Assembly (NCBI GenBank): GCA_001805445.1
Contig: MHGF01000022.1
Span: 10,613-74,612 of the forward strand
Direction of reading: 5' to 3'
Length of the DNA: 64,000 nt
Origin: Omnitrophica WOR_2 bacterium GWF2_43_52
Lineage (GTDB): Bacteria > Omnitrophota > Gorgyraeia > Gygaellales > UBA12090
Shown: positions 3,076 to 41,573 of the stretch, in pieces
Numbering within the stretch: position 1 is the first letter of the stretch
Layout of the letters: every line of letters begins with the position of its first letter
Position numbers and translations under genes: made by a program
The notes under the pieces: model-generated
What the model was told of the DNA's origin: nothing
Seen by the model: the letters and a program-made list of their open reading frames with translations, nothing else
Databases searched by the model: none

Positions 3076-3333
3076 TATTACCCTAGATTCGGTTTTCTGC
3101 CTTTATTAGCCTTCTTTGAACGCCAATTAAGTTTACCCCTTCTTTTACGCTTACTCATTGTGAGGACCGCTCCTTTCATGCAATAATTAATTTCTGGTAT
3201 AATTCTTGCCGTATTATAGCTTAGGCTTGCGAGAAAATCAACAACTATTGACAATAAGGAATCTTATGATTATAATATAATTAGAAATTTAAAGGTATAC
3301 TAGAGTTTTATACTAAGAAAGGAGCGATATTCG

Positions 3334-3639
3334 ATGAAAAAGGCTGTAGTTCTAACCATAATGATGCTTATGCCTCTTGCCATTATTAGTTGCACCACTA
3401 CTCAAAAAGGAGCGGCAGTAGGCGGATTAGGCGGGGCTGCCTTAGGTGGAATAATTGGCCATCAATCAGGACATGGCGGTGAAGGCGCGGCAATTGGAGC
3501 AGCGGTTGGCGCGATCTCAGGGGCGTTAGTCGGCGAGCAGATGGATAAAAAATTCTGCCCCGTATGCGGCGCTGAATACACCTCAGGGGTTACATACTGC
3601 TCAAAAGACGGCACAGAGCTAAAGTTAAAGCAAAAATAA
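3334..3639 (+). CDS. Small lipoprotein with glycine-zipper segment and C-terminal zinc-ribbon (C-x2-C ... C)
   Basis: Signal peptide plus lipobox-like IISC, Gly-rich GAAVGGLGGAALGGIIG, CPVCGAEYTSGVTYC. Confidence 0.5.
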   Translation: MKKAVVLTIMMLMPLAIISCTTTQKGAAVGGLGGAALGGIIGHQSGHGGEGAAIGAAVGAISGALVGEQMDKKFCPVCGAEYTSGVTYCSKDGTELKLKQK

Positions 3640-3725
3640 TTCTTTAAAGAAACTTCTTAAAGAAGTTTCTTTAAAGAAGCCAGGTTTTTTATTATTTTAA
3701 AAGGCCTGGCTTTTTTTATTTCCGA
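3640..3725. terminator. Bidirectional terminator region between convergent genes (tandem hairpins)
   Basis: Perfect 17-bp-arm palindrome ttctttaaagaaacttc ttaa gaagtttctttaaagaa followed by agccagg...cctggct hairpin and T7 run. Confidence 0.55.
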
Positions 3726-4319
3726 AACCGTGCTTGAGCCGGTTGTTACCGCGATTGCCTTTACCTTTGCATTGCGCGCGGTTTGAATATCAACGGTCAT
3801 ATCGCCGACAAAAAGCGTTTCTGAGTTTTTTGCTTTTAGCCTTTTCATAATGGTAATGATAATTTCCGGATCAGGTTTTCCCCGCGGGAGCTTGTCCGCG
3901 CATAAAATATAATCAAAAAACTCCTTGATTTTTAACTGCTTGACAATGATATTGGTAAATGCCGCAGGACGGTTAGAGGCAATAGCGATCTTAAAGCCAT
4001 GGCGTTTTAAATAGTGTAATAACCGCTTCGCGAAAGGAAGGAGCTTGGAATATTTTTTCAAGGAATCCCGATGGTGGCTGCGGTAAATCCTCAAGGCTTT
4101 CGTTATATCCTTTTCTTTGATAAACGCTGATACAAGCCTTGTATCTCCCCAGCCTACCGCCCTGCATATACGCCAAGGCTCTGCCTGAGGATACCCTAAC
4201 GTTTGAAGCGTAAAATTCATGCTTCTGACAATTGCTTCATAGGCATTAACCAAAGTGCCGTCAAGGTCAAAAATAACCACTCGTACACCGCGGGAATCCC
4301 GAACATTGCTGTTTTTCAT
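3657..4319 (-). CDS. HAD-superfamily hydrolase (phosphoglycolate-phosphatase-like)
   Basis: Motif I VVIFDLDGTLVN and C-terminal GDM..D motif typical of HAD hydrolases. Confidence 0.8.
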   Translation of the reverse strand: MKNSNVRDSRGVRVVIFDLDGTLVNAYEAIVRSMNFTLQTLGYPQAEPWRICRAVGWGDTRLVSAFIKEKDITKALRIYRSHHRDSLKKYSKLLPFAKRLLHYLKRHGFKIAIASNRPAAFTNIIVKQLKIKEFFDYILCADKLPRGKPDPEIIITIMKRLKAKNSETLFVGDMTVDIQTARNAKVKAIAVTTGSSTVSEIKKARPFKIIKNLASLKKLL

Positions 4320-31680: not shown

Positions 31681-32538
31681 TCACAGCGCACTAGTGGTGC
31701 CGATTAGTTTTTTGACCACTGCCAAATTCTGTTTATCCGCGGACTCGGAATCTTTCGGTGTCTCCAGGATAAAAGCAACGTCTTTGAGGCGCCTGTCATG
31801 TAAGAGCCGCCGAAAACCTGCTAAACCGATTTTTCCTTTACCAATATGTTCATGCCTGTCACGGTGGCTGGATAAAATATCCTTCGTATCGTTTAAATGA
31901 ATGAGCTTAAGCCGCTCAAAACCAACGATGGTATCTAACTGGCGCATGGTTTCTTTATAGCCATCTTCAGAAGCTAAATCATAGCCTGCGGCATAGGCGT
32001 GGCAGGTATCTAAACATATTCCTACCCTCTGTTTTTGCTCTAAACCATCAATAATCCGGCGGCTATGCTCAAAACAATACCCTAACCAAGAGCCTGATCC
32101 GGAAGTATTTTCCAAAAGAAGCTTGACCGGTGATTTTTTTGTCCTCTTTAAAATCATATTGAGTGCCGAAGTAATCCTTTTAATACCTAAATCCTCCCCG
32201 CTTTTTTTATGGCTGCCCATATGGGTTACGATATACTCTACGCCCAAGGCCTCGGCCTCTTTAATGTCTTCAATATAAGCCTTAACCGAATCCCTGTATA
32301 ATACCGCAAAAGGCGAGGCAAGGTTTATAAGATACGGCACATGCATAAACACGGGCGCAATATTACTTTCTGTCCTACGTTTTCTAAACTCCTCGATATC
32401 CTCAAGGCTTAAGCGCGCTTTACGCCACTGGCGGGGATCACGGGAGAATATCTGCATTGTAGTAACCCCAAGCGCCTTTGCCCTATCAATCGCCTCATAA
32501 ATATGCCCCGCCACTGAAACATGAACACCTATACGCAT
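31681..32538 (-). CDS. nfo: Endonuclease IV (AP endonuclease, xylose-isomerase-like TIM barrel)
   Basis: IHLNDTKDILSSHRDRHEHIGKGKIG metal-binding signature. Confidence 0.85.
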   Translation of the reverse strand: MRIGVHVSVAGHIYEAIDRAKALGVTTMQIFSRDPRQWRKARLSLEDIEEFRKRRTESNIAPVFMHVPYLINLASPFAVLYRDSVKAYIEDIKEAEALGVEYIVTHMGSHKKSGEDLGIKRITSALNMILKRTKKSPVKLLLENTSGSGSWLGYCFEHSRRIIDGLEQKQRVGICLDTCHAYAAGYDLASEDGYKETMRQLDTIVGFERLKLIHLNDTKDILSSHRDRHEHIGKGKIGLAGFRRLLHDRRLKDVAFILETPKDSESADKQNLAVVKKLIGTTSAL

Positions 32539-32620
32539 TGTTAAATTTTAGCACACTCAGAAGCTAATTGCCAATAAAAAAGGGCAGGTCTACCCCGCCC
32601 AAAACGCAGACAAAAATGTT

Positions 32621-33388
32621 TTATCGTTGTGTCCCTTCCTTTATGTGATACGCAACTTTATTCTTCTTACAAAACTTAATAACTGCCTGAGCTGAACTGT
32701 TGTAGAATTCCTTAGTATATTTAAATTCAGAAGATTTAACGCTATAGTTAAGCCGGCCAAATATAATTTTGTTTACAAATGATACTGCCTCTAAGATCTC
32801 CCTCAAATCCTGCTTAATTAAATTTGGCGTTGGGTATGGTTCCATGCTCACCCAAGTTTTGAATCCTCTACTACTCAGGTTCTTTAAGGTTTTAACTCTG
32901 TCCTTAAAAGGAGCGGAATTCGGCTCAAATTCCTTCCTGAAATCTTCGCTCAAGGATACCAAAGTAATGCCATATTCATTATTCGTACTTTGCCCGTTTC
33001 TGTCCGCTAATTCTTTGGGATAGGTACCCTTAGTTAGCACTGTGCAACGAATACTATTTTGATTAAGCCTATCAATAATTTTAAGGCTTAATTCGCCTAC
33101 TTCCGGTTGATTATACATGAATGGATCCGTAGAAAAACACATGTGGACATATTTTATTTTTTCTTTATAGCGAGGGATCTCCTTGTCTAGAAGCTCTAAT
33201 GCATTAGAAACAATCTTAGGCCGGCACCAATCTTCATAGGTTTTGACTATACCACATCTTTTTTTCATCATATAAGCGTAGCAGGGATATTTACAGCCAT
33301 GAGAACAACCCTCTACATGGTTTAAGCAAAAGTCGGCATATTCAACGCCGCTTTGATAAAGTAAAGTTTTACGCTCTATCTGATTCAT
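32621..33388 (-). CDS. COG1533/SPL-like radical-SAM-related protein with variant three-Cys cluster C-x3-C-x3-C
   Basis: GCSHGCKYPCYAY resembles the GCxHxCxYCYA core of DNA-repair-photolyase-like radical SAM proteins but with a one-residue insertion; start overlaps the upstream gene by 20 nt. Confidence 0.45.
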   Translation of the reverse strand: MNQIERKTLLYQSGVEYADFCLNHVEGCSHGCKYPCYAYMMKKRCGIVKTYEDWCRPKIVSNALELLDKEIPRYKEKIKYVHMCFSTDPFMYNQPEVGELSLKIIDRLNQNSIRCTVLTKGTYPKELADRNGQSTNNEYGITLVSLSEDFRKEFEPNSAPFKDRVKTLKNLSSRGFKTWVSMEPYPTPNLIKQDLREILEAVSFVNKIIFGRLNYSVKSSEFKYTKEFYNSSAQAVIKFCKKNKVAYHIKEGTQR

Positions 33389-34466
33389 CTTTAAATTGAA
33401 TTATATCGTTTTCTTCTATGGCTTTTCTCTGGCGCCCCTTAGGCGTGAATGGAGGAATTCTTCGAATTTTGATTTTATTCTTTGCTTCTAAACATTTTAA
33501 GGTATCCCTGAATTGACTCTCTAAGTAAACAGTCGAATCGATATTATCCTCAAGCAACGATTTAAATGATACTTCTTTGCCGAGATATTTTTTAAATAAT
33601 AACTCTATTATCTCACTTTGTTTTATATCCGCAAGTTCAAATAATTCTAGCTGACCAGAGCGGAATCCGCGATATTCCACTCGTCCGAGATTGTATTTAG
33701 CAAAAGACGATTTCATAATAGAACAGCCCATATAATAATTAGATAAATGAAAAAGATAATAATAAGTTTTGCGTTTCTCAGGAAATTCAAGTTTATAATA
33801 ATACACAAATTTAGAAAATGTCTTTAGCTGTTCCCTGTAGTGCTCGATAATTCCTTTCTCTCTTGCCTGCCCTTTCAATGTTTTGAATATCTGCCAACCG
33901 TTTCCACCAAATAAATCATTGTAAACATTCTCAACTCTTGGTGCAGATAAAAACTGATTTATTCGCGTAAACATAAAATTCAACAATATCTCTGATTTCT
34001 CAACGCTCATAATCTTTTTTAAAGTTTCCATCTTTATTTTGAATCCAAATGGATCTATAAAAACGAATGTTGGCGCAATATTCTTTACCGTACTAATAAC
34101 ATTATTTATGGTTTCATCAAAATCTTTGTCCACCATAAATGGCTTTATTTTAATCTTCGAATAATCCAGAATTTTCTGTATATTCTCCAAGTGTTCTTTG
34201 CTTTCATCAACAATAATAACATTTATATCTCGAGAGTTTTTTAAAGCTATCCTCTCAATAGCCTGACAGACTAATACCGGTGAACCATAAAAAAGCTTTC
34301 CTTCTTTATCTTTATATCCCCCAATCCCACCAAAACCATCGATAAAATTAAGTTTATTATATTTCCCGACAATTTTTATCCATTTATCAATATAATCAGC
34401 AAAAACAGAGTGCTTGGTTTTAGTCTGTTCTTCGTACTCCCAGGTTTTAAATGGCAATTCACCCAT
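33369..34466 (-). CDS. TcmP-like (three-Cys-motif partner) protein with methyltransferase-fold motifs
   Basis: LNFIDGFGGIGGY (FxGxG SAM-binding motif-I-like) and FVFIDPFGF (DPPY/DPPF-like motif IV) about 90 aa apart; family name recalled from memory, not verified. Confidence 0.4.
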   Translation of the reverse strand: MGELPFKTWEYEEQTKTKHSVFADYIDKWIKIVGKYNKLNFIDGFGGIGGYKDKEGKLFYGSPVLVCQAIERIALKNSRDINVIIVDESKEHLENIQKILDYSKIKIKPFMVDKDFDETINNVISTVKNIAPTFVFIDPFGFKIKMETLKKIMSVEKSEILLNFMFTRINQFLSAPRVENVYNDLFGGNGWQIFKTLKGQAREKGIIEHYREQLKTFSKFVYYYKLEFPEKRKTYYYLFHLSNYYMGCSIMKSSFAKYNLGRVEYRGFRSGQLELFELADIKQSEIIELLFKKYLGKEVSFKSLLEDNIDSTVYLESQFRDTLKCLEAKNKIKIRRIPPFTPKGRQRKAIEENDIIQFKDESDRA

Positions 34467-34479
34467 AATTATACTTTTG

Positions 34480-35460
34480 TTAAAACTGTTTAAATTTATA
34501 TTTACGAGTTAACAGTTTAACTTTTGCTTGTAAATCAGAATCAGACCCGCAAGCTGAAGCTTTTTTTATATTATAAGCTTCTGCTAGGGGTTGAAAAATA
34601 TTCTCGGTTAAGTCGTATATCTTTTTATGTAATCCTTCGCAATACTCAAAAATATCACATTCCATCAAGAGATCATCAAAATATGATTTGAGATTGTCTT
34701 CTTTTGACTTTCCATACGTAATACCTTGCTGAAAATAGTATGGCCATTGCCGGGAAAGAAAATGGTAGAATTTCTCATCGTTATCGTGGAAAAGAAATCC
34801 GCTATGATACCTAAAATGAGCCATTTTATCCCTATAAAGTTTAAATAGCTCAAACCACTCATTATTGCTATCATCGAGTATTTCCATTTTAATAAGATTG
34901 TTTATATCATCCTGATATTTTTCATCAGCTGAAACAATGGTTTTTTTACCCGAAGCAGCTGACGTTTTTAAGCCATCCTTGACTTTCTTTACAATCTCGG
35001 CAAAACTCGCTCTGCCGAAATTACCCCATGATAAAACAGCGCTTATGACTTCAGCGGTAGAATCTAAAATTGAATACATATTGATTAATAAAAGCTGAAG
35101 GCACCTGTTGAAGTGCTTAGGCGCTGAGGGATCAAAAGGCTCATTTTTTAGTTTCTTTATGGGGTTATAGGTATCAGCGTCATATTTTTTCATCAAATCA
35201 AACAACTCATGGTAATCCTCAAAAGAGGATTTTATTAAATCGACACTTGCGCCAAGATGAGAAAACATTATTCTTTGGTCATCAGCCAAGAACTTCGGGC
35301 ATTTATCAAAAGAAAAATAGTCTGCCTCAACATAAAATTTAAACAAAGGTTCAGGAATAACCTTGCTATTACGTGCCACTATCCATGAATCTTCGGGACA
35401 TGTTCTGGCTAATAGTGCTGATACAACAACATCTGCGGTTAAGCAATCTTTAAATTTCAT
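34480..35460 (-). CDS. Hypothetical protein of the cassette (possible HEPN-like R-x4-H motif)
   Basis: 326-aa ORF, AT-rich, tightly spaced with neighbours; YRDKMAHF motif. Confidence 0.3.
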   Translation of the reverse strand: MKFKDCLTADVVVSALLARTCPEDSWIVARNSKVIPEPLFKFYVEADYFSFDKCPKFLADDQRIMFSHLGASVDLIKSSFEDYHELFDLMKKYDADTYNPIKKLKNEPFDPSAPKHFNRCLQLLLINMYSILDSTAEVISAVLSWGNFGRASFAEIVKKVKDGLKTSAASGKKTIVSADEKYQDDINNLIKMEILDDSNNEWFELFKLYRDKMAHFRYHSGFLFHDNDEKFYHFLSRQWPYYFQQGITYGKSKEDNLKSYFDDLLMECDIFEYCEGLHKKIYDLTENIFQPLAEAYNIKKASACGSDSDLQAKVKLLTRKYKFKQF

Positions 35461-35565
35461 TATTCTAATCTTTCAATAATTATTTCTTAGACCAAGCGCC
35501 AATGTCATGTGCAGTCAACTGGATTTAATCAATTTAAACCAGCATATTACGCTACGAACTGCGAA

Positions 35566-36831
35566 TTATTTAGAGAAAATGCCATGGTCAACAAGCAATG
35601 GTGTTATAGAAGCGTCAACTAAACATCCGACAATTGCGCCCTTGCCTTCTTCAAATAGTTTTCGCGCCTCAATATTGTAATTTTCTCGAAGCTTTTTTAA
35701 GTCGGAGACATTTTCATTCCTTTTTAAATCAGTTTCGAGTTTAGCCATAAAATTAACAAGGTTATCGTAATTTAAACCTAATAAAAGCGTATTTCCTAAA
35801 ATAAAATCTTTAACTTCTATATGTTTCGCCGTTGCCGCAATCCATTCTTTTTGCGAAATATGATTTGCCCCTACGGCAAAGAGGGCACAAATATACCCCT
35901 CTGCGAGGGTTGCCTTTAGTGAATATATTGAACTTTTCTCTAAGTCATTTTCATCTAACAGTTTTTCTAATGCTAATATCCGCGCGTAGCTCTCTTCGTA
36001 CTTCTTTTCATTCGCTATTTTAGAAATATCTTGTGTTTCTTTAAGAGCATACTTCATGATTTTTTCCTTATCGATATTATTCTTTGCAGTATCGCCATTT
36101 TCGCGAATTGGAGGAAATACTTTCTCCGTGAAATCTACTATCTCTAATTTCCACCATAAATGATTTTTATGGTCGCCGAACTTACGGTAACGCTTACTCG
36201 GATAGTAATAGTCGTGGTCTGAAGGCGATATAGATTTACTATGAAATTGCTCCAAATTCTTAAAATCAGTTATGTTCAATCGAAATAAAATCGCGTCCAA
36301 CGGAATTTCCCGAGTTATAAGTGAGCTTATCTCGTCATATCTTCCTCGATTTAAATGTATTATCAATTCATTCGTTCTAAATAAATATGAGCAGGCCAGG
36401 GATTCCGTTAAAAACGGAACTCCTTCTAAAGCTTTTTGTTCTTCGTCAGAATAAAGGTCTGAAAAACAAAATTCATAGAAAGTCAGAGGATTTAGATAAT
36501 TCCCATTCGCATCTTCTATTTCAAAATAATCATTGAATTTTTCATCTTCATACGTCCAGATTTTTGCTCGACAGTAGTTATTCGCGTATAATTCCATTTT
36601 ATATGTAACACTGAATTTCTTTTTAGATATTTTCTCTACCGCTGAATCATCGTAGCTAGTTTTATTTTTAATCGTCTTTAGATAAAATGCTGGAAGTGGG
36701 GTAAGAGAAATGCTAACAATCTGATCTATCCCAGTAGGATTTACTATTTTTTCTATTAATGGACATTTGCAATGTAAACACGCTTTAATATTATCATCAT
36801 ATGATTTGTTGCATTTAGGACACTGTTTCAT
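35566..36831 (-). CDS. Hypothetical protein with N-terminal zinc ribbon (first gene of cassette operon)
   Basis: CPKCNKSY...CLHCKC at N-terminus; GAGGAGG SD upstream. Confidence 0.4.
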   Translation of the reverse strand: MKQCPKCNKSYDDNIKACLHCKCPLIEKIVNPTGIDQIVSISLTPLPAFYLKTIKNKTSYDDSAVEKISKKKFSVTYKMELYANNYCRAKIWTYEDEKFNDYFEIEDANGNYLNPLTFYEFCFSDLYSDEEQKALEGVPFLTESLACSYLFRTNELIIHLNRGRYDEISSLITREIPLDAILFRLNITDFKNLEQFHSKSISPSDHDYYYPSKRYRKFGDHKNHLWWKLEIVDFTEKVFPPIRENGDTAKNNIDKEKIMKYALKETQDISKIANEKKYEESYARILALEKLLDENDLEKSSIYSLKATLAEGYICALFAVGANHISQKEWIAATAKHIEVKDFILGNTLLLGLNYDNLVNFMAKLETDLKRNENVSDLKKLRENYNIEARKLFEEGKGAIVGCLVDASITPLLVDHGIFSK

Positions 36832-36867
36832 GGTTACCTCCTCACATCTCTTTAGTTAACTTAAAAA

Positions 36868-36912
36868 ACAAAAACCTCCGCCACTACTGGCGAAGGTTTT
36901 AATTATTTTTAC
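36868..36912 (-). terminator. Rho-independent terminator after the XRE regulator gene
   Basis: ccttcgccagtagtggcggagg hairpin followed by tttttgtttttt on the minus strand. Confidence 0.55.
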
Positions 36913-36991
36913 GTGGCAGTTCCCCCTTCAAACATACCACTTTACTTATACTTAATCGTTGTCTTACATATAGCATAAATTTACCGCCGAG

Positions 36992-37189
36992 TCAAACAAT
37001 TTTTGCCAAGTCATCAAGCGAAATGCCTAAAGATTTTGCTATGCCAACCATAGTGGAAAAAGTAGGATTTTTTGACTCCCCAGATTCAATCTTCACAATC
37101 GTGTTAAAAGATACATCTGCCAAGCAAGCCAGTTTTTCTTGAGATAAACCTTTTTTTAGCCTTAATTCTCTAATTTTCTTAGCTGACAT
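36992..37189 (-). CDS. XRE-family helix-turn-helix transcriptional regulator (65 aa)
   Basis: LRLKKGLSQEKLACLADVSFNTIVKIESG... HTH_3 pattern. Confidence 0.85.
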   Translation of the reverse strand: MSAKKIRELRLKKGLSQEKLACLADVSFNTIVKIESGESKNPTFSTMVGIAKSLGISLDDLAKIV

Positions 37190-37392: not shown

Positions 37393-37440
37393 AAAATTTT
37401 TGCACGAAAACAGCTCTTTTTTACGTCTTATATAGTAGGA
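37393..37440 (+). promoter_or_regulatory. Conserved promoter-like motif copy C1 (AAAATTTTTGCACGAAAA-N13-ACGTCTTATATAGTAGG)
   Basis: Near-identical to copies at 39032-39080 and 41574-41623; diverged copy at 43104-43150. Confidence 0.5.
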
Positions 37441-37502
37441 GTATAGTGGTAAAAACTATAACCATTTATGCCAAAAAACGCACTATATGAGGAGGGGAAT
37501 AA

Positions 37503-38207
37503 ATGTTCAAAAAATATTCAAAGCGGATAAAACAAAGAATACGCAATTTAAGAAGCCGAGGCTGGTCATTGGGAGAAATTGGTTTAAAAACGGGCATACC
37601 TAAGAATACCCTGTCTGAATGGGTCAGAGATATTCAGCTTTCTAAGGCTCAAGAAAAACGAATAAAAGAAAAGGAAATAGCATCAGCGGCCATTGGAAGA
37701 GATATAGCCAGAAAAATATTGCGTGAAAAAATTGATAAATGGAAGGAAAAAATACGAGAAAAGGTAAAACATTTTGGCAAATCAGCTTTACTAAATCAAG
37801 AAATGGGAAAACTTGTATGTGGATTATTATATCTGTGCGAAGGCTCTAAGTATCCTTCTACCAGATGTTTGATTTTCGGTAACTCCGATCCTAGAATAAT
37901 CAAGGCGTTCCTTAATTTATTAAGGAACTATTTCCGTATTCGAGAGGACAAGTTACGCTGCAGAATCACTCCTCGTTGGGACCAAAACATTAATAAGTTG
38001 CAGATTTTCTGGTCAAATATTACTAAGATTCCTATTGAACAATTCTACCACACAATACCTGACAAGCGTACCAAAGGCAAGACTACTGGAAAGGAAGATT
38101 ATCAAGGAGTTTGCGTTATATATTATTGCGATACCTCATTACAATTTGAGTTACAATCAATCGGTGAAGCAGTAATTAAAGGTGTAGGGGGGAAATCGAA
38201 AAGTTAG
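37503..38207 (+). CDS. HTH-domain protein (234 aa), possibly a degenerate homing-endonuclease or transposase-like protein
   Basis: N-terminal HTH (GWSLGEIGLKTGIPKNTLSEW); weak LAGLIDADG-like GLLYLCEGS; abuts tRNA-Ala. Confidence 0.4.
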   Translation: MFKKYSKRIKQRIRNLRSRGWSLGEIGLKTGIPKNTLSEWVRDIQLSKAQEKRIKEKEIASAAIGRDIARKILREKIDKWKEKIREKVKHFGKSALLNQEMGKLVCGLLYLCEGSKYPSTRCLIFGNSDPRIIKAFLNLLRNYFRIREDKLRCRITPRWDQNINKLQIFWSNITKIPIEQFYHTIPDKRTKGKTTGKEDYQGVCVIYYCDTSLQFELQSIGEAVIKGVGGKSKS

Positions 38208-38280
38208 TGGAGCTGGAGGGGATCGAACCCTCTGCCTCTTCCATGCCATGGAAGCGCTCTCCCAGGTGAGCTACAGCCCC
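38208..38280 (-). tRNA. tRNA-Ala (anticodon GGC)
   Basis: Reverse complement folds as GGGGCTG/CAGCTCC acceptor with G3:U70, D-stem GCTC/GAGC, anticodon loop AT-GGC-AT, T-loop TTCGATC; no encoded CCA. Confidence 0.85.
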
Positions 38281-38346: not shown

Positions 38347-38739
38347 TTATTCTTGCTTTAAATACTCCGATAGCTTCTCCCAAGTGCGGCTGCCCATGAC
38401 TCCATCTGCATTTAATCCATTTGCTTCCTGGAATTTTCTGATTGCTTCTTTGGTCGCGGAACCGATTTGCCCGTCTGCCTCACCTTTATAAAATCCGGCA
38501 TTCTTTAGCGCGGTTTGAATCTCGGTGGCTACCGGCATCTTAAAGACTACTTTTTGCTTTTTCGTGGCATCGGTCAAGGCCTCTGACAACGCATTCACCT
38601 TGTCTTTTAAGGCGCTATTCTCCTTTTGCAGGCGCTCAACTTGCCCTTCAAGCGAATTTATTTTACCCTGATACTCCAGCGTGGCGCATCCTGATGCCCC
38701 AAAAATTAAAAATAACCCTAAAAATATAGTTCTACCCAT
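38347..38739 (-). CDS. Lipoprotein with coiled-coil segment and C-terminal peptidoglycan-binding (PG_binding_1) domain
   Basis: Lipobox LIFGASGC; ...FYKGEADGQIGSATKEAIRKFQEANGLNADGVMGSRTW; start set at internal ATG (ORF-track start is a TTG). Confidence 0.6.
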   Translation of the reverse strand: MGRTIFLGLFLIFGASGCATLEYQGKINSLEGQVERLQKENSALKDKVNALSEALTDATKKQKVVFKMPVATEIQTALKNAGFYKGEADGQIGSATKEAIRKFQEANGLNADGVMGSRTWEKLSEYLKQE

Positions 38740-38789
38740 TTGGCTTTTCTCCTTTTTTAGAAGAGTAATTATACCCCAGCTTTCTTTGT

Positions 38790-38818
38790 TTGACAAATAT
38801 TATTTTAGGTGCTATATT
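38790..38818 (+). promoter_or_regulatory. Consensus sigma-70 promoter driving tRNA-Leu
   Basis: TTGACA - 17 nt - TATATT, 17 nt upstream of the tRNA 5' end. Confidence 0.5.
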
Positions 38819-38835
38819 TTACTCATTCTTCCTTT

Positions 38836-38918
38836 GCTGGAGTGGTGGAATGGCATACACGCCAGTCTCAAAAACTGGTGGGGTCACACCCGTGTGGGTT
38901 CAACTCCCACCTCCAGCA
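38836..38918 (+). tRNA. tRNA-Leu (anticodon CAA), type II with long variable arm
   Basis: GCTGGAG/CTCCAGC acceptor stem, anticodon stem CCAGT/ACTGG with loop CT-CAA-AA, variable arm GGGGTCACACCC, T-arm GTGGG TTCAACT CCCAC, discriminator A; embedded in spurious N-terminal extension of ORF 38681..39613. Confidence 0.75.
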
Positions 38919-39031
38919 TTTATTATTTTTGGGTTCTCCCGTCCCTCTTGTTAGCTTGCGCGGCGGGATCCCGCTACGCGGGAAACTCCCTTCCCCGGCA
39001 CCATATCTTCCTCCTATCTCATAATCTCCTG

Positions 39032-39080
39032 AAAATTTTTGCACGAAAACCGCCTCTTACTCCGTCTTATATTGTAGGAG
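39032..39080 (+). promoter_or_regulatory. Conserved promoter-like motif copy C2
   Basis: gaaaatttttgcacgaaaaccgcctcttactccgtcttatattgtaggagg directly upstream of ORF6N-1 ATG. Confidence 0.5.
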
Positions 39081-39088
39081 GCGAAGAT

Positions 39089-39613
39089 ATGGCTGATTTA
39101 ATATCTACAGAAATAATAACTGCAAATATTTTAGTTATAAGAGGTAAAAGGGTTATGCTAGATAGTGATTTAGCTGTGCTTTATGGCGTAAAGACCGGAA
39201 GATTAAACGAACAGGTAAGTAGAAACATTAAAAGGTTTCCGGAAGACTTTATGTTTCTGCTTACCAAAGAAGAGGCTTTAAGCTTGAAATCGCATTTTGC
39301 GACTTCAAGCTGGGGCGGCGTAAGAAAACTCCCTCGCGCCTTTACCCAAGAAGGTGTCGCTATGCTCTCAGGTGTGTTAAGCAGCGAACGCGCAATTATG
39401 GTCAATATACAGATTATGCGCGCCTTTACTCATCTAAGGCGCATGCTTCTAACCAATAAGGACCTCAAACGAAGAATTGAAGAAATGGAAGAGAAATACG
39501 ATAAGCAGTTTGCGATAGTATTTCAAGCTTTAAAACAATTATTGGAACCTGCGCCGACAAAACCAAAATCGCAGATTGGGTTTCGTATGTATAATGATTC
39601 TGAAAAAAGTTAA
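39089..39613 (+). CDS. ORF6N-domain DNA-binding protein, paralog 1
   Basis: VMLDSDLAVLYGVKTGRLNEQVSRNIKRFPEDFMFLLT core; AGGAGG SD; ORF-track N-terminal extension rejected. Confidence 0.75.
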   Translation: MADLISTEIITANILVIRGKRVMLDSDLAVLYGVKTGRLNEQVSRNIKRFPEDFMFLLTKEEALSLKSHFATSSWGGVRKLPRAFTQEGVAMLSGVLSSERAIMVNIQIMRAFTHLRRMLLTNKDLKRRIEEMEEKYDKQFAIVFQALKQLLEPAPTKPKSQIGFRMYNDSEKS

Positions 39614-39697
39614 ATTCTAATGGCGAGGGTGGTATAATATTATATATTCAATCATTCTTAGAACAAAGTTAATAACTCAAAAAAGGAGACAGAAACC

Positions 39698-40015
39698 ATG
39701 TTCATTAAAGGCATGACTTTAACAAGTACTGTGCTATTAGCTTGGGGGTTTTATTATATTATCCTTAGAAAGGCTTATGATAAACAAAGCAGGTCAAGAA
39801 ATAATTGGATTATAGGATTAATTTTTATGTTAAGTTCTAAATTATACGACATCATCATGTATAAAATTCATCATGGCATCAAAGATGAAATCAACTCAAC
39901 CGATACTGCATTTTTTATAATATCTATTTTTGTTTCGATAGCAACCATAGCAAAGATATTAAATAAAATAGAAAAAATAAAAAAACTGGATTCGAAGGAC
40001 GAAAATATTAGTTGA
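39698..40015 (+). CDS. Small membrane protein (105 aa), hypothetical
   Basis: Two hydrophobic helices; AT-rich island cargo; GGAGA SD. Confidence 0.35.
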   Translation: MFIKGMTLTSTVLLAWGFYYIILRKAYDKQSRSRNNWIIGLIFMLSSKLYDIIMYKIHHGIKDEINSTDTAFFIISIFVSIATIAKILNKIEKIKKLDSKDENIS

Positions 40016-40039
40016 CGCTTTTCAATCGAAAGTTATTAA

Positions 40040-40654
40040 ATGGCACACATAACACATGTTCCTTTAAATTTTGAAGAAGCTTGGGATTTAGCTGACTTGG
40101 AGGGCAGGAAACATGATTTGGAGTGGGTGAAAGAAGTCAGTCAAAAATATCTACAATGTTTTGACAAAATTAGCGATTTTATTATTCATGATGTTTTCTG
40201 TTCTGCAATAATTGTGAGATATGGACGCGCTCATAACAAAGGGCGTAAGAAAATTATGCCAGCCGAATGTTTCAAAGGCTTAACGCAAGAAGAAAAAGAT
40301 AAGCATAATTTTTTTATGAACTTGCGAAATAAACATTACGCGCATTCTGCGAATAACTACGAATATAATATCCCCAAAGCATGGATTAGAAACATAGATT
40401 CTCCTGGCCCAGAGTTTGATCAGGTAGGTGTAGTACATGAACGTATTGTCGGATTAAGTATCCAAGAAATACGGGATATTATGTCTTTGGTAGAAAAATT
40501 ATTACCGAACCTAGAAAACAAGATTAAAGAAACAAAAAATACGGTAACAGAGATTGCAAAACGGATTTCGATTAGCGAATTGATAAAAAATAAATTTCCA
40601 GAAATACTTACGACAAAGGAATCCGCCGGACAACCAAGAAAACGAAAACTTTAA
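40040..40654 (+). CDS. Hypothetical protein (204 aa) with possible HEPN/Abi-like RN-x4-H motif
   Basis: NLRNKHYAHS motif; AT-rich; flanked by small TM proteins. Confidence 0.35.
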   Translation: MAHITHVPLNFEEAWDLADLEGRKHDLEWVKEVSQKYLQCFDKISDFIIHDVFCSAIIVRYGRAHNKGRKKIMPAECFKGLTQEEKDKHNFFMNLRNKHYAHSANNYEYNIPKAWIRNIDSPGPEFDQVGVVHERIVGLSIQEIRDIMSLVEKLLPNLENKIKETKNTVTEIAKRISISELIKNKFPEILTTKESAGQPRKRKL

Positions 40655-40690
40655 GTTGGAAAACAATGAGTATCCGGAGGCTAAAAGAAA

Positions 40691-41083
40691 ATGGATATAA
40701 GAAAAATTAAAAGAAGGCAGTGGTTGATTGTGATTCTTTTGGGTATCCCGACTTTTATACTAGGAAGATTCTTTCTGAAATATTACAGTAATTTATTGAC
40801 TATAGTCGTACTTCTTGTATGGCTGGGTACCCTTCGACTTATACTCCTTTTAGTTGAGAAAATTCAGAGAAAACCTATTAAGCAGATTCAAAAGAAAATA
40901 GACGCTTATGAGAAAATAACAAAAGAAGAATTTGAATTTTGGCAGAAGAATTACAATGGTCTTACAAATTATGGCACTTATGAAAATTATTTAAGAATCT
41001 GTGACTTGCCTCCAGACAAGCGAGATCCTTTCAGAGGGGTAGATTTTTCGAAAATATTTAAAACAAATAAAAATGAACATTAA
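40691..41083 (+). CDS. Small membrane protein (130 aa), hypothetical
   Basis: Two N-terminal TM helices then a charged soluble tail. Confidence 0.35.
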   Translation: MDIRKIKRRQWLIVILLGIPTFILGRFFLKYYSNLLTIVVLLVWLGTLRLILLLVEKIQRKPIKQIQKKIDAYEKITKEEFEFWQKNYNGLTNYGTYENYLRICDLPPDKRDPFRGVDFSKIFKTNKNEH

Positions 41084-41195
41084 TAAAATTATATTCTGAT
41101 AAGAGTTATTAAAGTTTTAGCTATAAAGATAGAAGAAACATAAATTTTCATCTCCGAAACAAATTTTTTTGTTGGCTCTCAAACCATCTCCACAA

Positions 41196-41232
41196 AAGGC
41201 TCGGCATGCCGCACCGCCGAGTTTTTTTTGTT
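41196..41232 (+). terminator. Rho-independent terminator after the 39.7-41.1 kb gene trio
   Basis: ggctcggcatgccgcaccgccgag followed by T8. Confidence 0.55.
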
Positions 41233-41573
41233 GCTGATTGCGGCATAGCGGACGAGCATAGGTAGTTTTTAGGGGACTAGAGCGAGGACGCTGGGGTTGG
41301 CGGCGCCGCCGCCAGCCCCAAGCCTAGCCGAACACGCACGGCATTAGCTGGAAGCCTACCGCCGAGGCAGGCGCCGAGTGAGTCCCGCTCCCAAGCGGGG
41401 CGAACGGTGCAAGGGAGATGCGGAAGCGCGCCCAAGCTCGCGGGACATTATTTCATTGACGAGGAATTGTGATTGTAATAATCTTGGAGTGAATAGTTTA
41501 TTTGACAAATTGCCTTTTGGGGCATTCCTCATAGGAAGAGCACTATCTTGTTCCTTTTCCTAAGATTCCCTCT

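Follow-up and report, generated by a model that had tools for sequence, protein, structure and literature searches.

A composite low-GC islet around a TcmP–radical-SAM pair, a candidate nucleic-acid-modifying module, in an Omnitrophica genome

Introduction

The 64,000-nucleotide stretch of the Omnitrophica WOR_2 bacterium GWF2_43_52 genome analyzed here (the window; contig MHGF01000022.1) carries five closely spaced minus-strand genes between an nfo-like AP_endonuc_2 gene (31681-32538) and a tRNA-Ala(GGC) gene (38207-38280, minus strand). Do these genes work as one system, and on what would they act? The original prediction held that an XRE gene and the four genes behind it form one integrated, previously undescribed defense or modification system. 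Our analysis favors, with a probability of roughly 0.58, a small composite defense islet whose core would be a two-enzyme nucleic-acid-modifying module.

Results

In the order of transcription, the genes encode a 65-aa XRE/Cro-C1-type HTH protein (36992-37189), p421, a 421-aa orphan protein with an N-terminal zinc ribbon (35566-36831), p326, a 326-aa HEPN-like protein that we regard as a separate defense-island module (34480-35460), TcmP, a 365-aa protein with a class-I SAM-methyltransferase fold and a C-terminal winged helix (33369-34466), and its three-Cys partner, a 255-aa radical-SAM protein of the SPL/COG1533/DUF5131 clade (rSAM; 32621-33388). The p421 and p326 genes are 105 nt apart and the p326 and TcmP genes 13 nt apart, and the TcmP and rSAM genes overlap by 20 nt at the rSAM start. 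A strong terminator-like hairpin with a 13-bp stem and a T-run (36871-36900, minus strand) lies in the spacer between the XRE gene and p421; the spacer folds with a z of -3.4, and the p421 gene starts only about 40 nt downstream of the hairpin. Another terminator-like hairpin 3' of the rSAM gene (32582-32600, minus strand; 7 pairs, 6 of them GC, then a TTTTTTAT T-run) closes the cassette. One strand, tiny gaps and a terminator at each end indicate that the four genes are probably co-transcribed. GC content is 0.30-0.36 over 33-38 kb (about 34%) vs 0.40-0.47 in the rest of the window, and because this trough adjoins tRNA genes we consider the tract to be of foreign origin. The tRNA-Ala gene borders the low-GC tract, and an additional ORF, p234 (37503-38207, plus strand), lies between it and the XRE gene. 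Every feature first described holds: the five ORFs and the distances between them, the two terminators, the motifs and the GC trough, including the XRE gene and terminator placed ahead of a low-GC cassette. Since every protein has homologs in which its motifs are kept, these motifs are well beyond chance.

The 365-aa protein had been associated with the TcmP family, and a profile search bears this out, with 162.9 bits against TIGR04474, far over the cutoff of 53. Its AF2 model, the only confident one among those of the five proteins, has a class-I SAM-methyltransferase fold, with RlmJ/YhiR and Trm1 as its nearest structures; at the sequence level, no PDB chain matched. Motif I, the SAM-binding loop (D43-G-F-G-G-I-G49; 34320-34340, minus strand), keeps D43, G47 and G49 invariant across 47 homologs. 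Motif IV, a (D/N)PP(Y/F)-like catalytic loop of amino-methyltransferases (D138-P-F-G141; 34044-34055, minus strand), keeps D138, P139 and G141 invariant and F140 in at least 90% of the same homologs. The methyltransferase fold with FxGxG-type and DPFG motifs thus stands on both the predicted structure and conservation. Residues about 275-335 (33462-33644, minus strand) score 27.1 bits against Pfam GMT-wHTH (GA 27), and the AF2 secondary structure of the C-terminus (H-E-H-H-E-E) fits a winged helix-turn-helix.

The downstream protein passes Pfam Radical_SAM (57.3 bits, GA 29.5), which confirms its assignment to the radical-SAM enzymes, matches phrog_13321 at 7e-22 and gives below-cutoff profile matches to Rv2578c, PA0069, mobile-pair B and DUF5131. 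Its cluster loop GCSHGCKYPCYA (G27-A38; 33275-33310, minus strand) reads G27-C28-S-H-G-C32-K-Y-P-C36-Y-A and places the cysteines as C28-x3-C32-x3-C36. The one-residue insertion that had been noted as turning the loop into CX3CX3C is real and is a conserved trait of the subfamily (39/40 relatives): GC[SA]HGCx[YF]PCYA is found in essentially all members (C28 in 39/40, C32 and C36 in 40/40), whereas distant rSAMs and SPL-like partners retain CX3CX2C. An alignment of 40 sequences has 46 invariant positions, C240 and the cluster cysteines included (C28 in 39/40). SAM cleavage by this enzyme is not guaranteed, the cluster loop being non-canonical.

Conservation of the TcmP/three-Cys neighborhood was found across diverse bacteria and archaea: in genes called crudely as longest ORFs, mostly on MAG or metagenome contigs, a three-Cys partner adjoins or is fused to TcmP in about 77 of 80 loci. 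The partner is of the CX3CX3C type in 43 loci, a DUF5131 protein in 16 (328 bits in one example) and SPL-like in 18, including fusions of about 710 aa; one locus has distant canonical rSAMs. In 43 of the 80 loci, the gene directly 3' of TcmP encodes a relative of the window rSAM with 52-80% identity. Downstream partners follow TcmP at a median gap of 3.5 nt and overlap it in 13/44 cases, and about a fifth of the TcmP homologs listed (24 among 120) are fusions of roughly 470-640 aa with Radical_SAM. The rSAM is more conserved than TcmP in 35/35 loci (median identities 59% vs 44%), and all seven TcmPs on viral contigs are paired. The claim of an undescribed system is too strong for this core, since the pairing of TcmP with a three-Cys protein already exists as a family concept in NCBIfam and its DUF5131-partnered form is the PADLOC candidate PDC-M30/M41; we found no functional test of the pair in the literature searched.

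The operon-linked neighbors of the pair are mainly Type IIG/Eco57I methyltransferases, ResIII, N6 and N4 methyltransferases and PLD-SNF2 proteins. Two loci (L022 and L031) have the order mod-tcmP-rSAM-res, a truncated one (L036) has its 3' part, and L101 is a dense defense island. In Gordonia prophages, TcmP and DUF5131 come right after the immunity repressor and close to the integrase, and the pair also occurs beside recombinases or transposases. Reading the neighborhood as a defense island is reasonable, and guilt by association suggests a defense role for family members. About one in three of the loci with enough flanking sequence hold the pair alone, with no restriction gene linked to it, which counts against defense by a pure modification module.

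The R-x4-H motif proposed for p326 holds throughout its family: in R210-D-K-M-A-H215 (34816-34833, minus strand), a candidate HEPN Rx4-6H catalytic motif with the family consensus RNKxAH, R210, K212 and H215 never vary among 56 members with identities as low as about 21%, and at least 90% of them keep N211. A HEPN fold was not reproduced by Foldseek, which found nothing with a predicted model of moderate quality, and no HEPN profile matched significantly. The p421 zinc-ribbon pattern (C4-P-K-C7 ... C18-L-H-C21-K-C23; 36763-36822, minus strand) is kept in four full-length relatives and gives a weak NCBIfam zinc-ribbon match (E 0.002); Pfam, PHROG, PDB, phage and plasmid sequences gave no match to p421. 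The search of 5.8 billion clusters found 6 relatives; p421 relatives occur on an integrase/primase element and beside a helicase-REase and a Fic gene. The XRE protein matches Pfam HTH_3 (9e-15) and PADLOC 'control protein'/capH-like models. It is kept in a close relative of the locus (L100), is absent from the other TcmP loci and is probably a local regulator.

Discussion

Our data point to a horizontally acquired islet beside tRNA genes, in which three modules that would move independently are combined with a local XRE regulator. The TcmP-rSAM pair would be a conserved functional unit, a two-subunit enzyme that modifies nucleic-acid bases; the gene overlap in the window provides translational coupling, and other organisms have both proteins fused in a single polypeptide. 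TcmP, the faster-diverging, amino-methyltransferase-type Rossmann partner, may choose the target and present a flipped base; it has intact SAM-binding and DPFG loops and a winged helix and probably N-methylates the base. For the strongly conserved rSAM we propose cleavage of a second SAM and a radical reaction on the nucleotide handled by TcmP. From these patterns we infer that the two proteins form a complex, act on DNA or RNA by such chemistry and have a defense phenotype. The output could be a base mark or a lesion used in genetic conflict, either marking self-DNA or disabling invading nucleic acid. Next to it, p326 would be a putative HEPN-like RNase, probably an abortive-infection or back-up effector, and p421 an orphan zinc-ribbon protein that elsewhere resides on mobile or defense loci.

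One integrated system of all five genes would agree with their packing on one strand between two terminators, with the low GC common to all of them and with L100, which keeps the gene order. However, L100 is a close relative (proteins 87-89% identical) rather than independent evidence, its TcmP gene is broken into two ORFs, and no other locus combines the genes. Relatives of p326, p421 or XRE were found in 0 of 80 diverse TcmP loci, so that a co-evolving set of four or five genes is not supported. Relatives of p421 occur in unrelated mobile or defense contexts with none of the other cassette genes, and many genomes have the TcmP-rSAM pair as a self-sufficient unit; we consider a single system improbable. 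A better, still doubtful candidate is a three-gene system in which p326 is coupled to the pair, for instance as an RNase effector whose release or licensing depends on a modification state sensed or made by the pair; p421 and XRE would then be bystanders. The 13-nt gap in the window speaks for it, as do three other lineages (L012, L110 and L123) where TcmP-like genes of various subtypes have a p326 relative beside them or in the vicinity; in L012 a gene for Abi_2, a HEPN family, lies between the two. DUF3644, an unrelated HEPN protein, overlaps the rSAM stop codon in L125, L126 and L128, and defense by a DUF3644 protein depends on its Rx4-6H histidine (bioRxiv 10.1101/2024.01.29.577857). A reading as independent modules may thus understate the link between HEPN proteins and the pair. 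Against such coupling, p326 is missing from the 80 TcmP genome loci, the DUF3644 cases belong to one lineage, and in L110 the p326 and TcmP-like genes are 5 kb apart with three other defense-type genes between. Moreover, most p326 loci are the 3' ends of SNF2-PLD and Eco57I-type methyltransferase operons with no TcmP (at least 11/28 loci have p326 following the Eco57I gene, together with SNF2-PLD if the contig reaches far enough), and HEPN proteins are ubiquitous in defense islands, so that occasional adjacency is expected.

The target of the pair raises two further alternatives. TcmP could act on RNA and have no defense role at all, its nearest solved structures being RNA rather than DNA methyltransferases. 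A housekeeping or stress pair, in which TcmP, like RlmJ and Trm1, methylates a base of a tRNA or rRNA and the rSAM then elaborates it, would follow the precedent of methyltransferase-then-rSAM pathways known for tRNA, such as the Trm5-then-TYW1 logic of wyosine synthesis. We think it very unlikely, as the pair is patchy across bacteria and archaea, its contexts vary, its GC content is foreign, and it turns up inside R-M operons, within the lysogeny modules of prophages and beside recombinases or transposases; the winged helix and the SPL-clade partner suggest DNA. The second alternative is a DNA-repair module under SOS-type control, with an SPL-like rSAM reversing a lesion as spore photoproduct lyase does and TcmP as its lesion-binding subunit. 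The partner does belong to the SPL/COG1533 'DNA repair photolyase' clade, LexA/S24-type genes lie near the pair in 7 loci (operon-linked in 3-4), and nfo adjoins the cassette in the window. Yet the rSAM reaches about a tenth of the cutoff score with either curated model, PA0069 or Rv2578c, TcmP has a full catalytic methyltransferase signature, needless for a mere lesion binder, S24/LexA-like repressors are typical of mobile elements too, and the nfo adjacency is unique to the source genome among the loci compared; this reading is equally improbable.

The window rSAM shares with SPL/COG1533 enzymes (PA0069 and Rv2578c families) and DUF5131 proteins its clade by best profile matches, a GCxHGC...CYA-type cluster region near the N-terminus and a comparable size, and SPL, MJ0683-like and DUF5131 proteins share one megacluster in RadicalSAM.org (megacluster 5). 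It differs in its low scores against the curated models (47 vs a cutoff of 430 and 45 vs 360 for the two SPL/COG1533 families, and 20 vs 28.9 for DUF5131), in the inserted Pro that makes CX3CX3C out of what is CX3CX2C in SPL-like and about Cx6-7Cx2C in DUF5131 proteins, and in its obligate partnership with TcmP. RlmJ/YhiR (23S rRNA m6A2030 methyltransferase) and Trm1 (tRNA m2,2G26 methyltransferase) are 9-13% identical to TcmP, which unlike them has an extra winged helix, is mobile and has an Fe-S enzyme partner. The HEPN defense RNases, including HEC-08 (a DUF3644 HEPN domain), AbiD/AbiF and the HEPN toxins of HEPN-MNT pairs, are the comparison for p326, although at 326 aa it is twice a minimal HEPN domain and forms its own small family.

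The embedding-derived PADLOC candidates PDC-M30/M41 are the DUF5131-partnered sister form of the pair: the window TcmP matches PDC-M30A (1e-26) and PDC-M41A and likewise adjoins a three-Cys protein, and both forms often lie inside R-M-type operons. In PADLOC, the B component is a DUF5131 protein of about 241 aa. The window rSAM matches it only with its own first ~110 residues (E about 1e-5), and instead passes Pfam Radical_SAM and has the CX3CX3C loop. An analogy of logic only is offered by Type III and Type IIG R-M. The second subunit of the pair is a radical-SAM enzyme rather than a nuclease or helicase, with no known restriction activity, but both couple or fuse a sequence-reading subunit of methyltransferase fold to a second catalytic subunit, and both are mobile and patchily distributed, with a faster-diverging recognition partner.

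Organization of the window locus

The cassette comprises five minus-strand ORFs, whose order, spacings, low GC content and XRE-side terminator had been described accurately in the original prediction. The gene encoding the XRE protein (65 aa, 36992-37189), which scores 54.8 bits against Pfam HTH_3 (gathering threshold 23) and is a member of the XRE/Cro-C1 HTH group, is followed by the genes for p421 (421 aa, 35566-36831), p326 (326 aa, 34480-35460, after a 105-nt gap), the three-Cys-motif partner TcmP (365 aa, 33369-34466, after a 13-nt gap) and a radical-SAM protein, rSAM (255 aa, 32621-33388), whose gene overlaps that of TcmP by 20 nt. An AP_endonuc_2 (nfo-like) gene ends at 32538 on one side; on the other, a plus-strand ORF of 234 aa (p234, 37503-38207) lies between the XRE gene and tRNA-Ala (38207-38280), with tRNA-Leu (38835-38919) beyond. 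GC content is 0.30-0.36 across 33-38 kb versus 0.40-0.47 in the rest of the window, and an identical locus is found in many groundwater assemblies.

A 13-bp terminator-like hairpin (36900-36871) follows the XRE gene and another (32600-32582) follows rSAM, the last gene; because the four genes are bracketed by these two terminators, they are probably co-transcribed in the window. The p421 start codon lies only ~40 nt past the end of the strong upstream hairpin (spacer 36832-36991), which leaves no room for a promoter downstream of it, so that cassette expression may need read-through or the leader hairpin. A promoter-like site (36931-36902) is present just upstream of this hairpin. Promoter-like matches within the cassette (28 versus 21.6 ± 4.9 in shuffled sequence) did not exceed expectation, and a search of the leaders for RNA elements returned the two tRNAs and no other known element. 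On the nfo side of the island, no att-type direct repeat copying the 3' end of tRNA-Ala was found, and an integrase is absent, so integration at the tRNA is only a possibility.

Several further features surround the tRNAs. A 49-nt direct repeat, 84% identical between its copies (37393-37441 and 39032-39080), lies upstream of p234 and of an ORF6N-domain gene and includes the promoter-like pattern TTTACG-16-TATAGT. The repeat may serve these plus-strand genes, one on either side of the tRNAs, as a common promoter/operator through which both are regulated together, perhaps via the XRE protein. The p234 ORF stops exactly at the tRNA-Ala 3' end, and its product has only weak N-terminal HTH/transposase-like matches in profile libraries; its stretch GLLYLCEGSK is reminiscent of a LAGLIDADG motif, with no profile behind it. 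Because a second low-GC patch lies past the tRNAs (0.29-0.35 at 39.5-41.2 kb), the variable region extends to both sides of the tRNA pair. Positions 38681-41300 carry three ORF6N (KilA-N/antirepressor-like) genes and several small genes without assignment; the mechanically called ORF 38681-39613 crosses tRNA-Leu and is over-called, the real ORF6N gene being ~174 aa.

TcmP and a three-Cys radical-SAM protein form a conserved pair

Co-occurrence was examined starting in turn from TcmP, p421 and p326. The TcmP scan took one genome per species and covered ±8 kb around TcmP in 80 loci spread over highly diverse bacteria and archaea; counts rest on up to 80 loci per scan, fetched mostly from MAG or metagenome contigs, some truncated, with genes called as simple longest ORFs. 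A three-Cys partner was adjacent to or fused with TcmP in ~77/80 loci, and this pairing or fusion identifies TcmP and the three-Cys radical-SAM protein as a conserved unit, an association already implied by the NCBIfam family name. The partner falls into three classes. In 43 loci it is a 52-80% identical copy of the window rSAM, nearly always immediately 3' and on the same strand; in 16 it is instead a DUF5131 protein (328 bits for one example); and in 18 it is an SPL-like radical-SAM protein with a canonical CX3CX2C motif, either separate (~330 aa) or fused to TcmP (~710 aa, with Pfam SPL, GMT-wHTH and Radical_SAM matches). The overall count takes in one locus where a fused SPL-like domain is accompanied by a DUF5131 gene (L073) and one with distant canonical radical-SAM proteins (L083). 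Fusions of TcmP with CX3CX3C-type radical-SAM proteins also exist (~635 aa). Where the partner gene is downstream of TcmP, the gap between the two has a median of 3.5 nt. The comparison shows TcmP and the three-Cys protein to be an obligate, often fused pair.

The two members have diverged to different degrees. In 35/35 loci compared, rSAM was closer to the window copy than TcmP was (median identity 59% versus 44%), one rSAM subfamily partners TcmPs as far apart as 28% identity, and TcmP itself has the three partner classes. This imbalance, seen across loci L015-L094, points to partner swapping or fast evolution of TcmP. TcmPs of 28-32% identity occur beside rSAMs of 58-73% in, for example, loci L075, L076, L091 and L057.

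The cassette is probably a composite of separate modules

The original prediction had treated all the genes from XRE to rSAM as one candidate undescribed system, a proposal that finds no support as a unit: no relative of p326, p421, XRE or p234 was found within ±8 kb of TcmP in any of the 80 loci. In these loci, conservation of gene neighbourhood extends to the TcmP/three-Cys pairing but not to the zinc-ribbon (p421) and p326 genes. Viewed from p421, one relative (69% identical) belongs to an element that also encodes an integrase, a DUF927 primase and an S78 protease, and another (76%) is flanked by an Upf1-like helicase-REase fusion on one side and a Fic gene on the other; p326 and TcmP are absent from both loci. 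Viewed from p326 (28 loci), an Eco57I/MmeI-type methyltransferase gene is directly upstream, often overlapping, in at least 11, and in those loci a SNF2-PLD helicase-nuclease gene precedes the methyltransferase wherever the contig reaches far enough. TcmP-like genes lie near p326 in three of the 28 loci and are of differing subtypes: a 27% identical TcmP with DUF5131, separated from p326 by an Abi_2 gene (L012); a 41% TcmP with a 54% rSAM, 5 kb from p326 past DUF4365 and RES genes (L110); and a 26% TcmP-like gene 153 nt from p326 (L123). The full order XRE-p421-p326-TcmP-rSAM was found again only in locus L100, a close relative of the window, as its proteins are 87-89% identical. Judged by this distribution of homologs, at least three apparently independently mobile modules make up the cassette.

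Some loci have features of their own. In L100, TcmP is split into ORFs of 86 aa and 213 aa (3135-4228) on a contig of 2x coverage, possibly through a sequencing error or because the gene is decaying. A recurrent restriction-modification (R-M)-like operon (L012-L014, L098, L099, L102-L104) consists of a SNF2 helicase-PLD nuclease fusion, an Eco57I/MmeI-type methyltransferase and then p326, with an optional small variable gene before p326, whose product (225 or 316 aa) seems to have a membrane-like N-terminus. In L014, a 422-aa gene after p326 carries its own HEPN-like motif, RNSLVH, and is followed by an nSTAND NTPase; it was considered as a p421 relative and ruled out, having no detectable similarity.

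TcmP is a predicted methyltransferase and rSAM a predicted variant radical-SAM enzyme

TcmP matches TIGR04474 with 162.9 bits against a cutoff of 53 (residues 13-258, profile positions 1-262 of 263), which bears out the original assignment, and its C-terminus has a borderline Pfam GMT-wHTH domain. An AlphaFold model built with 47 homologues in the alignment is very confident (pLDDT 93.5, pTM 0.91) and predicts a class I SAM-dependent methyltransferase fold, a Rossmann-like seven-strand arrangement with the SAM-binding motif I and the catalytic motif IV, as had been anticipated for this protein. Residues D43, G47 and G49 (DGFGGIG) and D138, P139 and G141 (DPFG) are invariant in the family, so the SAM-binding and catalytic loops are intact. 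A search of PDB sequences with the TcmP profile gave no meaningful match. Alignment and model together show a predicted complete amino-methyltransferase catalytic signature and a winged helix.

The window rSAM matches Pfam PF04055 Radical_SAM with 57.3 bits (gathering threshold 29.5, residues 23-200) and departs from the canonical CX3CX2C, its cysteines being C28-x3-C32-x3-C36. Other accepted radical-SAM enzymes also stray from the canonical cluster spacing. The variant had been noted in the window, and it is no local oddity: it is kept across the subfamily, with GC[SA]HGCx[YF]PCYA in essentially every close relative and the cluster cysteines conserved in 39/40 (C28), 40/40 (C32) and 40/40 (C36) relatives. 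In all, 46 positions, including a further cysteine, C240, are invariant across bacteria and archaea; this conservation shows the partner to be a strongly constrained, predicted SPL-clade radical-SAM enzyme. The protein scores below cutoff against the PA0069 (NCBIfam NF033668, 44.9 versus 360) and Rv2578c (NF038135, 47.3 versus 430) families, and appears from these scores to be related to these COG1533 families without being a member. It is also weakly similar, below cutoff, to 'radical SAM mobile pair B', and matches phrog_13321, an uncharacterised phage family. Against DUF5131 (Pfam PF07505) it scores 20.1 (threshold 28.9) over its N-terminal half only, whereas a true DUF5131 partner of TcmP scores ~328 bits in the example measured. 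With NCBIfam scores reaching roughly one-tenth of their cutoffs, and the DUF5131 score under threshold, the window subfamily is, by profile comparison, covered by no curated model.

p326 is a likely HEPN-like protein and p421 an orphan

p326 has no significant match in Pfam, NCBIfam, PADLOC or PHROGs. An exhaustive profile search of 1.84 billion proteins yielded only 153 representatives; those of full length are all ~330 aa and unfused. Across 56 members reaching down to ~21% identity, seven positions are invariant and three of these are R210, K212 and H215; together with N211, present in no fewer than 90% of members, they form RNKxAH, a textbook HEPN Rx4-6H signature. The R-x4-H motif first noticed in the window is thus a family feature, but the HEPN assignment built on it drew no significant HEPN profile: the window protein matched none, and its 56 relatives gave only sub-threshold matches to HEPN_Apea (0.0015), DUF4145, HEPN_Swt1 and Ribonuc_2-5A. 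AF2 gave a model of moderate quality (pLDDT 72, one good model of five), for which Foldseek returned no significant match in the PDB. We consider p326 likely to be a HEPN-like RNase. p421 has six relatives in 5.8 billion clusters, nothing significant in Pfam, NCBIfam, PADLOC or PHROGs, and no match in phage and plasmid collections; its predicted N-terminal zinc ribbon, CPKC...CxxCxC, is confirmed as a conserved pattern in the four full-length relatives. PDB sequence searches with p326 profiles and with p421 gave no meaningful match.

The pair keeps company with restriction-modification and phage genes

Among 110 operon-linked neighbours of the pair, R-M components dominate: Eco57I/Type IIG methyltransferases (8-10), ResIII (8), N6_Mtase (6), N6_N4_Mtase (3) and PLD/SNF2 (3), with LexA/S24 (3-4), Schlafen-AlbA2 and T5orf172 also present. 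Two loci (L022, L031) have the Type III-like order mod - tcmP - rSAM - res, in which neighbouring genes overlap or nearly abut, and a truncated one (L036) has tcmP - rSAM - res at the contig start. In two others (L040, L042) the pair is downstream of SNF2-PLD and an Eco57I methyltransferase, and in L058 a fused TcmP-SPL protein lies between these two genes. The closest divergent copy (L101, 72% identical TcmP) has rSAM as its sole cassette partner; the island around it also contains Type I R-M, AbiE, and methyltransferase plus HNH genes. The pair is bare in roughly a third of the loci that have room on both sides. The Type III-like embedding places it between mod (N6_N4_Mtase) and res (ResIII helicase), likewise in L096, the nominal phage record MT836112; this record is unverified, resembles a cellular R-M-type locus and was dropped as phage evidence.

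The pair also occurs in phages. In the Gordonia temperate phages ThankyouJordi and Easley, TcmP (gp42) comes immediately after the immunity repressor in the same orientation, and is convergent with a DUF5131 gene (gp41), beside the integrase. The slot next to the immunity repressor is the usual place of prophage exclusion genes. In ThankyouJordi (MK801727.1, 33401-35979; L095) the pair lies between the repressor gp43 and the integrase gp38, gp42 being annotated 'methyltransferase' and gp41 hypothetical. A partner was present in 7/7 IMG/VR contigs with TcmP; on one of them a large serine recombinase adjoins the pair, and on another a Mu-type transposase lies not far away. Three IMG/VR loci (L125, L126, L128) share the order Eco57I methyltransferase - T5orf172/ResIII helicase - TcmP - CX3CX3C rSAM - DUF3644 (HEPN), with an 8-nt overlap between the end of rSAM and the beginning of DUF3644; the first four genes of this block are common to L048 and L049. 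A DUF3644 protein defends in a histidine-dependent manner (bioRxiv 10.1101/2024.01.29.577857), and together with the gene overlap this makes a recurrent HEPN add-on to the pair worth considering.

Discussion

In the mechanism that we propose, TcmP would be the target-selecting, base-flipping and probably methylating subunit, and rSAM would act on that same nucleotide by conserved radical chemistry; the outcome would be a base mark or lesion that serves genetic conflict. p326 would most simply be a separate HEPN-type effector. A precedent for methylation followed by radical transformation exists in wyosine synthesis, where Trm5 acts before TYW1. The winged helix, the SPL clade and the R-M embedding suggest that the substrate is DNA, whereas the structures nearest to the TcmP model, RlmJ and Trm1, both suggest RNA. 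The catalytic motif of Trm1 is probably also DPFG.

A more specific version, which we regard as improbable, makes the pair an R-M analogue in which the radical-SAM protein replaces the nuclease as the 'restriction' arm. Short DNA sites would be read by the winged helix and the base-flipping amino-methyltransferase pocket of TcmP, which would methylate those in the cell's own DNA, and rSAM, bound or fused to TcmP, would abstract hydrogen from the exposed nucleotide at unmethylated foreign sites to yield a replication-blocking lesion, crosslink or strand break, with HEPN proteins (p326, DUF3644) as optional back-up RNases. If the pair does make or read a nucleic-acid modification, joining methyltransferase-type recognition of the target to radical chemistry, it would represent a new enzymatic principle for epigenetic marking or antiviral defence. 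The radical-SAM reaction would likewise be new, and the cluster loop of the enzyme has the unusual, conserved form CX3CX3C. The pair is widespread in bacteria, archaea and prophages and lies repeatedly inside R-M operons. The window holds a compact, clonable example, with an adjoining HEPN-like gene that may cooperate with the pair, and is a good experimental entry point to a widespread enzyme pair with possibly new radical-SAM chemistry.

Searchable literature yielded no study of function for TcmP, for DUF5131 or for this rSAM subfamily, and what it contains on the pair, PDC-M30/M41, GMT-wHTH and COG1533/SPL defence is limited to passing mentions in annotations and to a PADLOC preprint. According to this preprint, PDC-M30/M41 belong to a set of 145 candidates picked out because they are embedded in BREX, DISARM and Type I R-M loci ('guilt by embedding'). 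The A components of PADLOC PDC-M30 and PDC-M41 match TcmP (1e-26 and 3e-11), and their B components match rSAM weakly and partially (8e-5 and 1.5e-5, residues 12-122). These PADLOC entries are the DUF5131-partnered form of the pair. The window locus is neither a categorically new architecture nor unique to the window, and the four-gene cassette is itself no new system; its value lies in the pair, not in the combination. Its core is of a catalogued but uncharacterised kind, the TcmP/three-Cys pair, and what is new in the window version, as far as profile and alignment comparisons indicate, is a partner subfamily outside the curated models with a conserved, non-canonical CX3CX3C loop.
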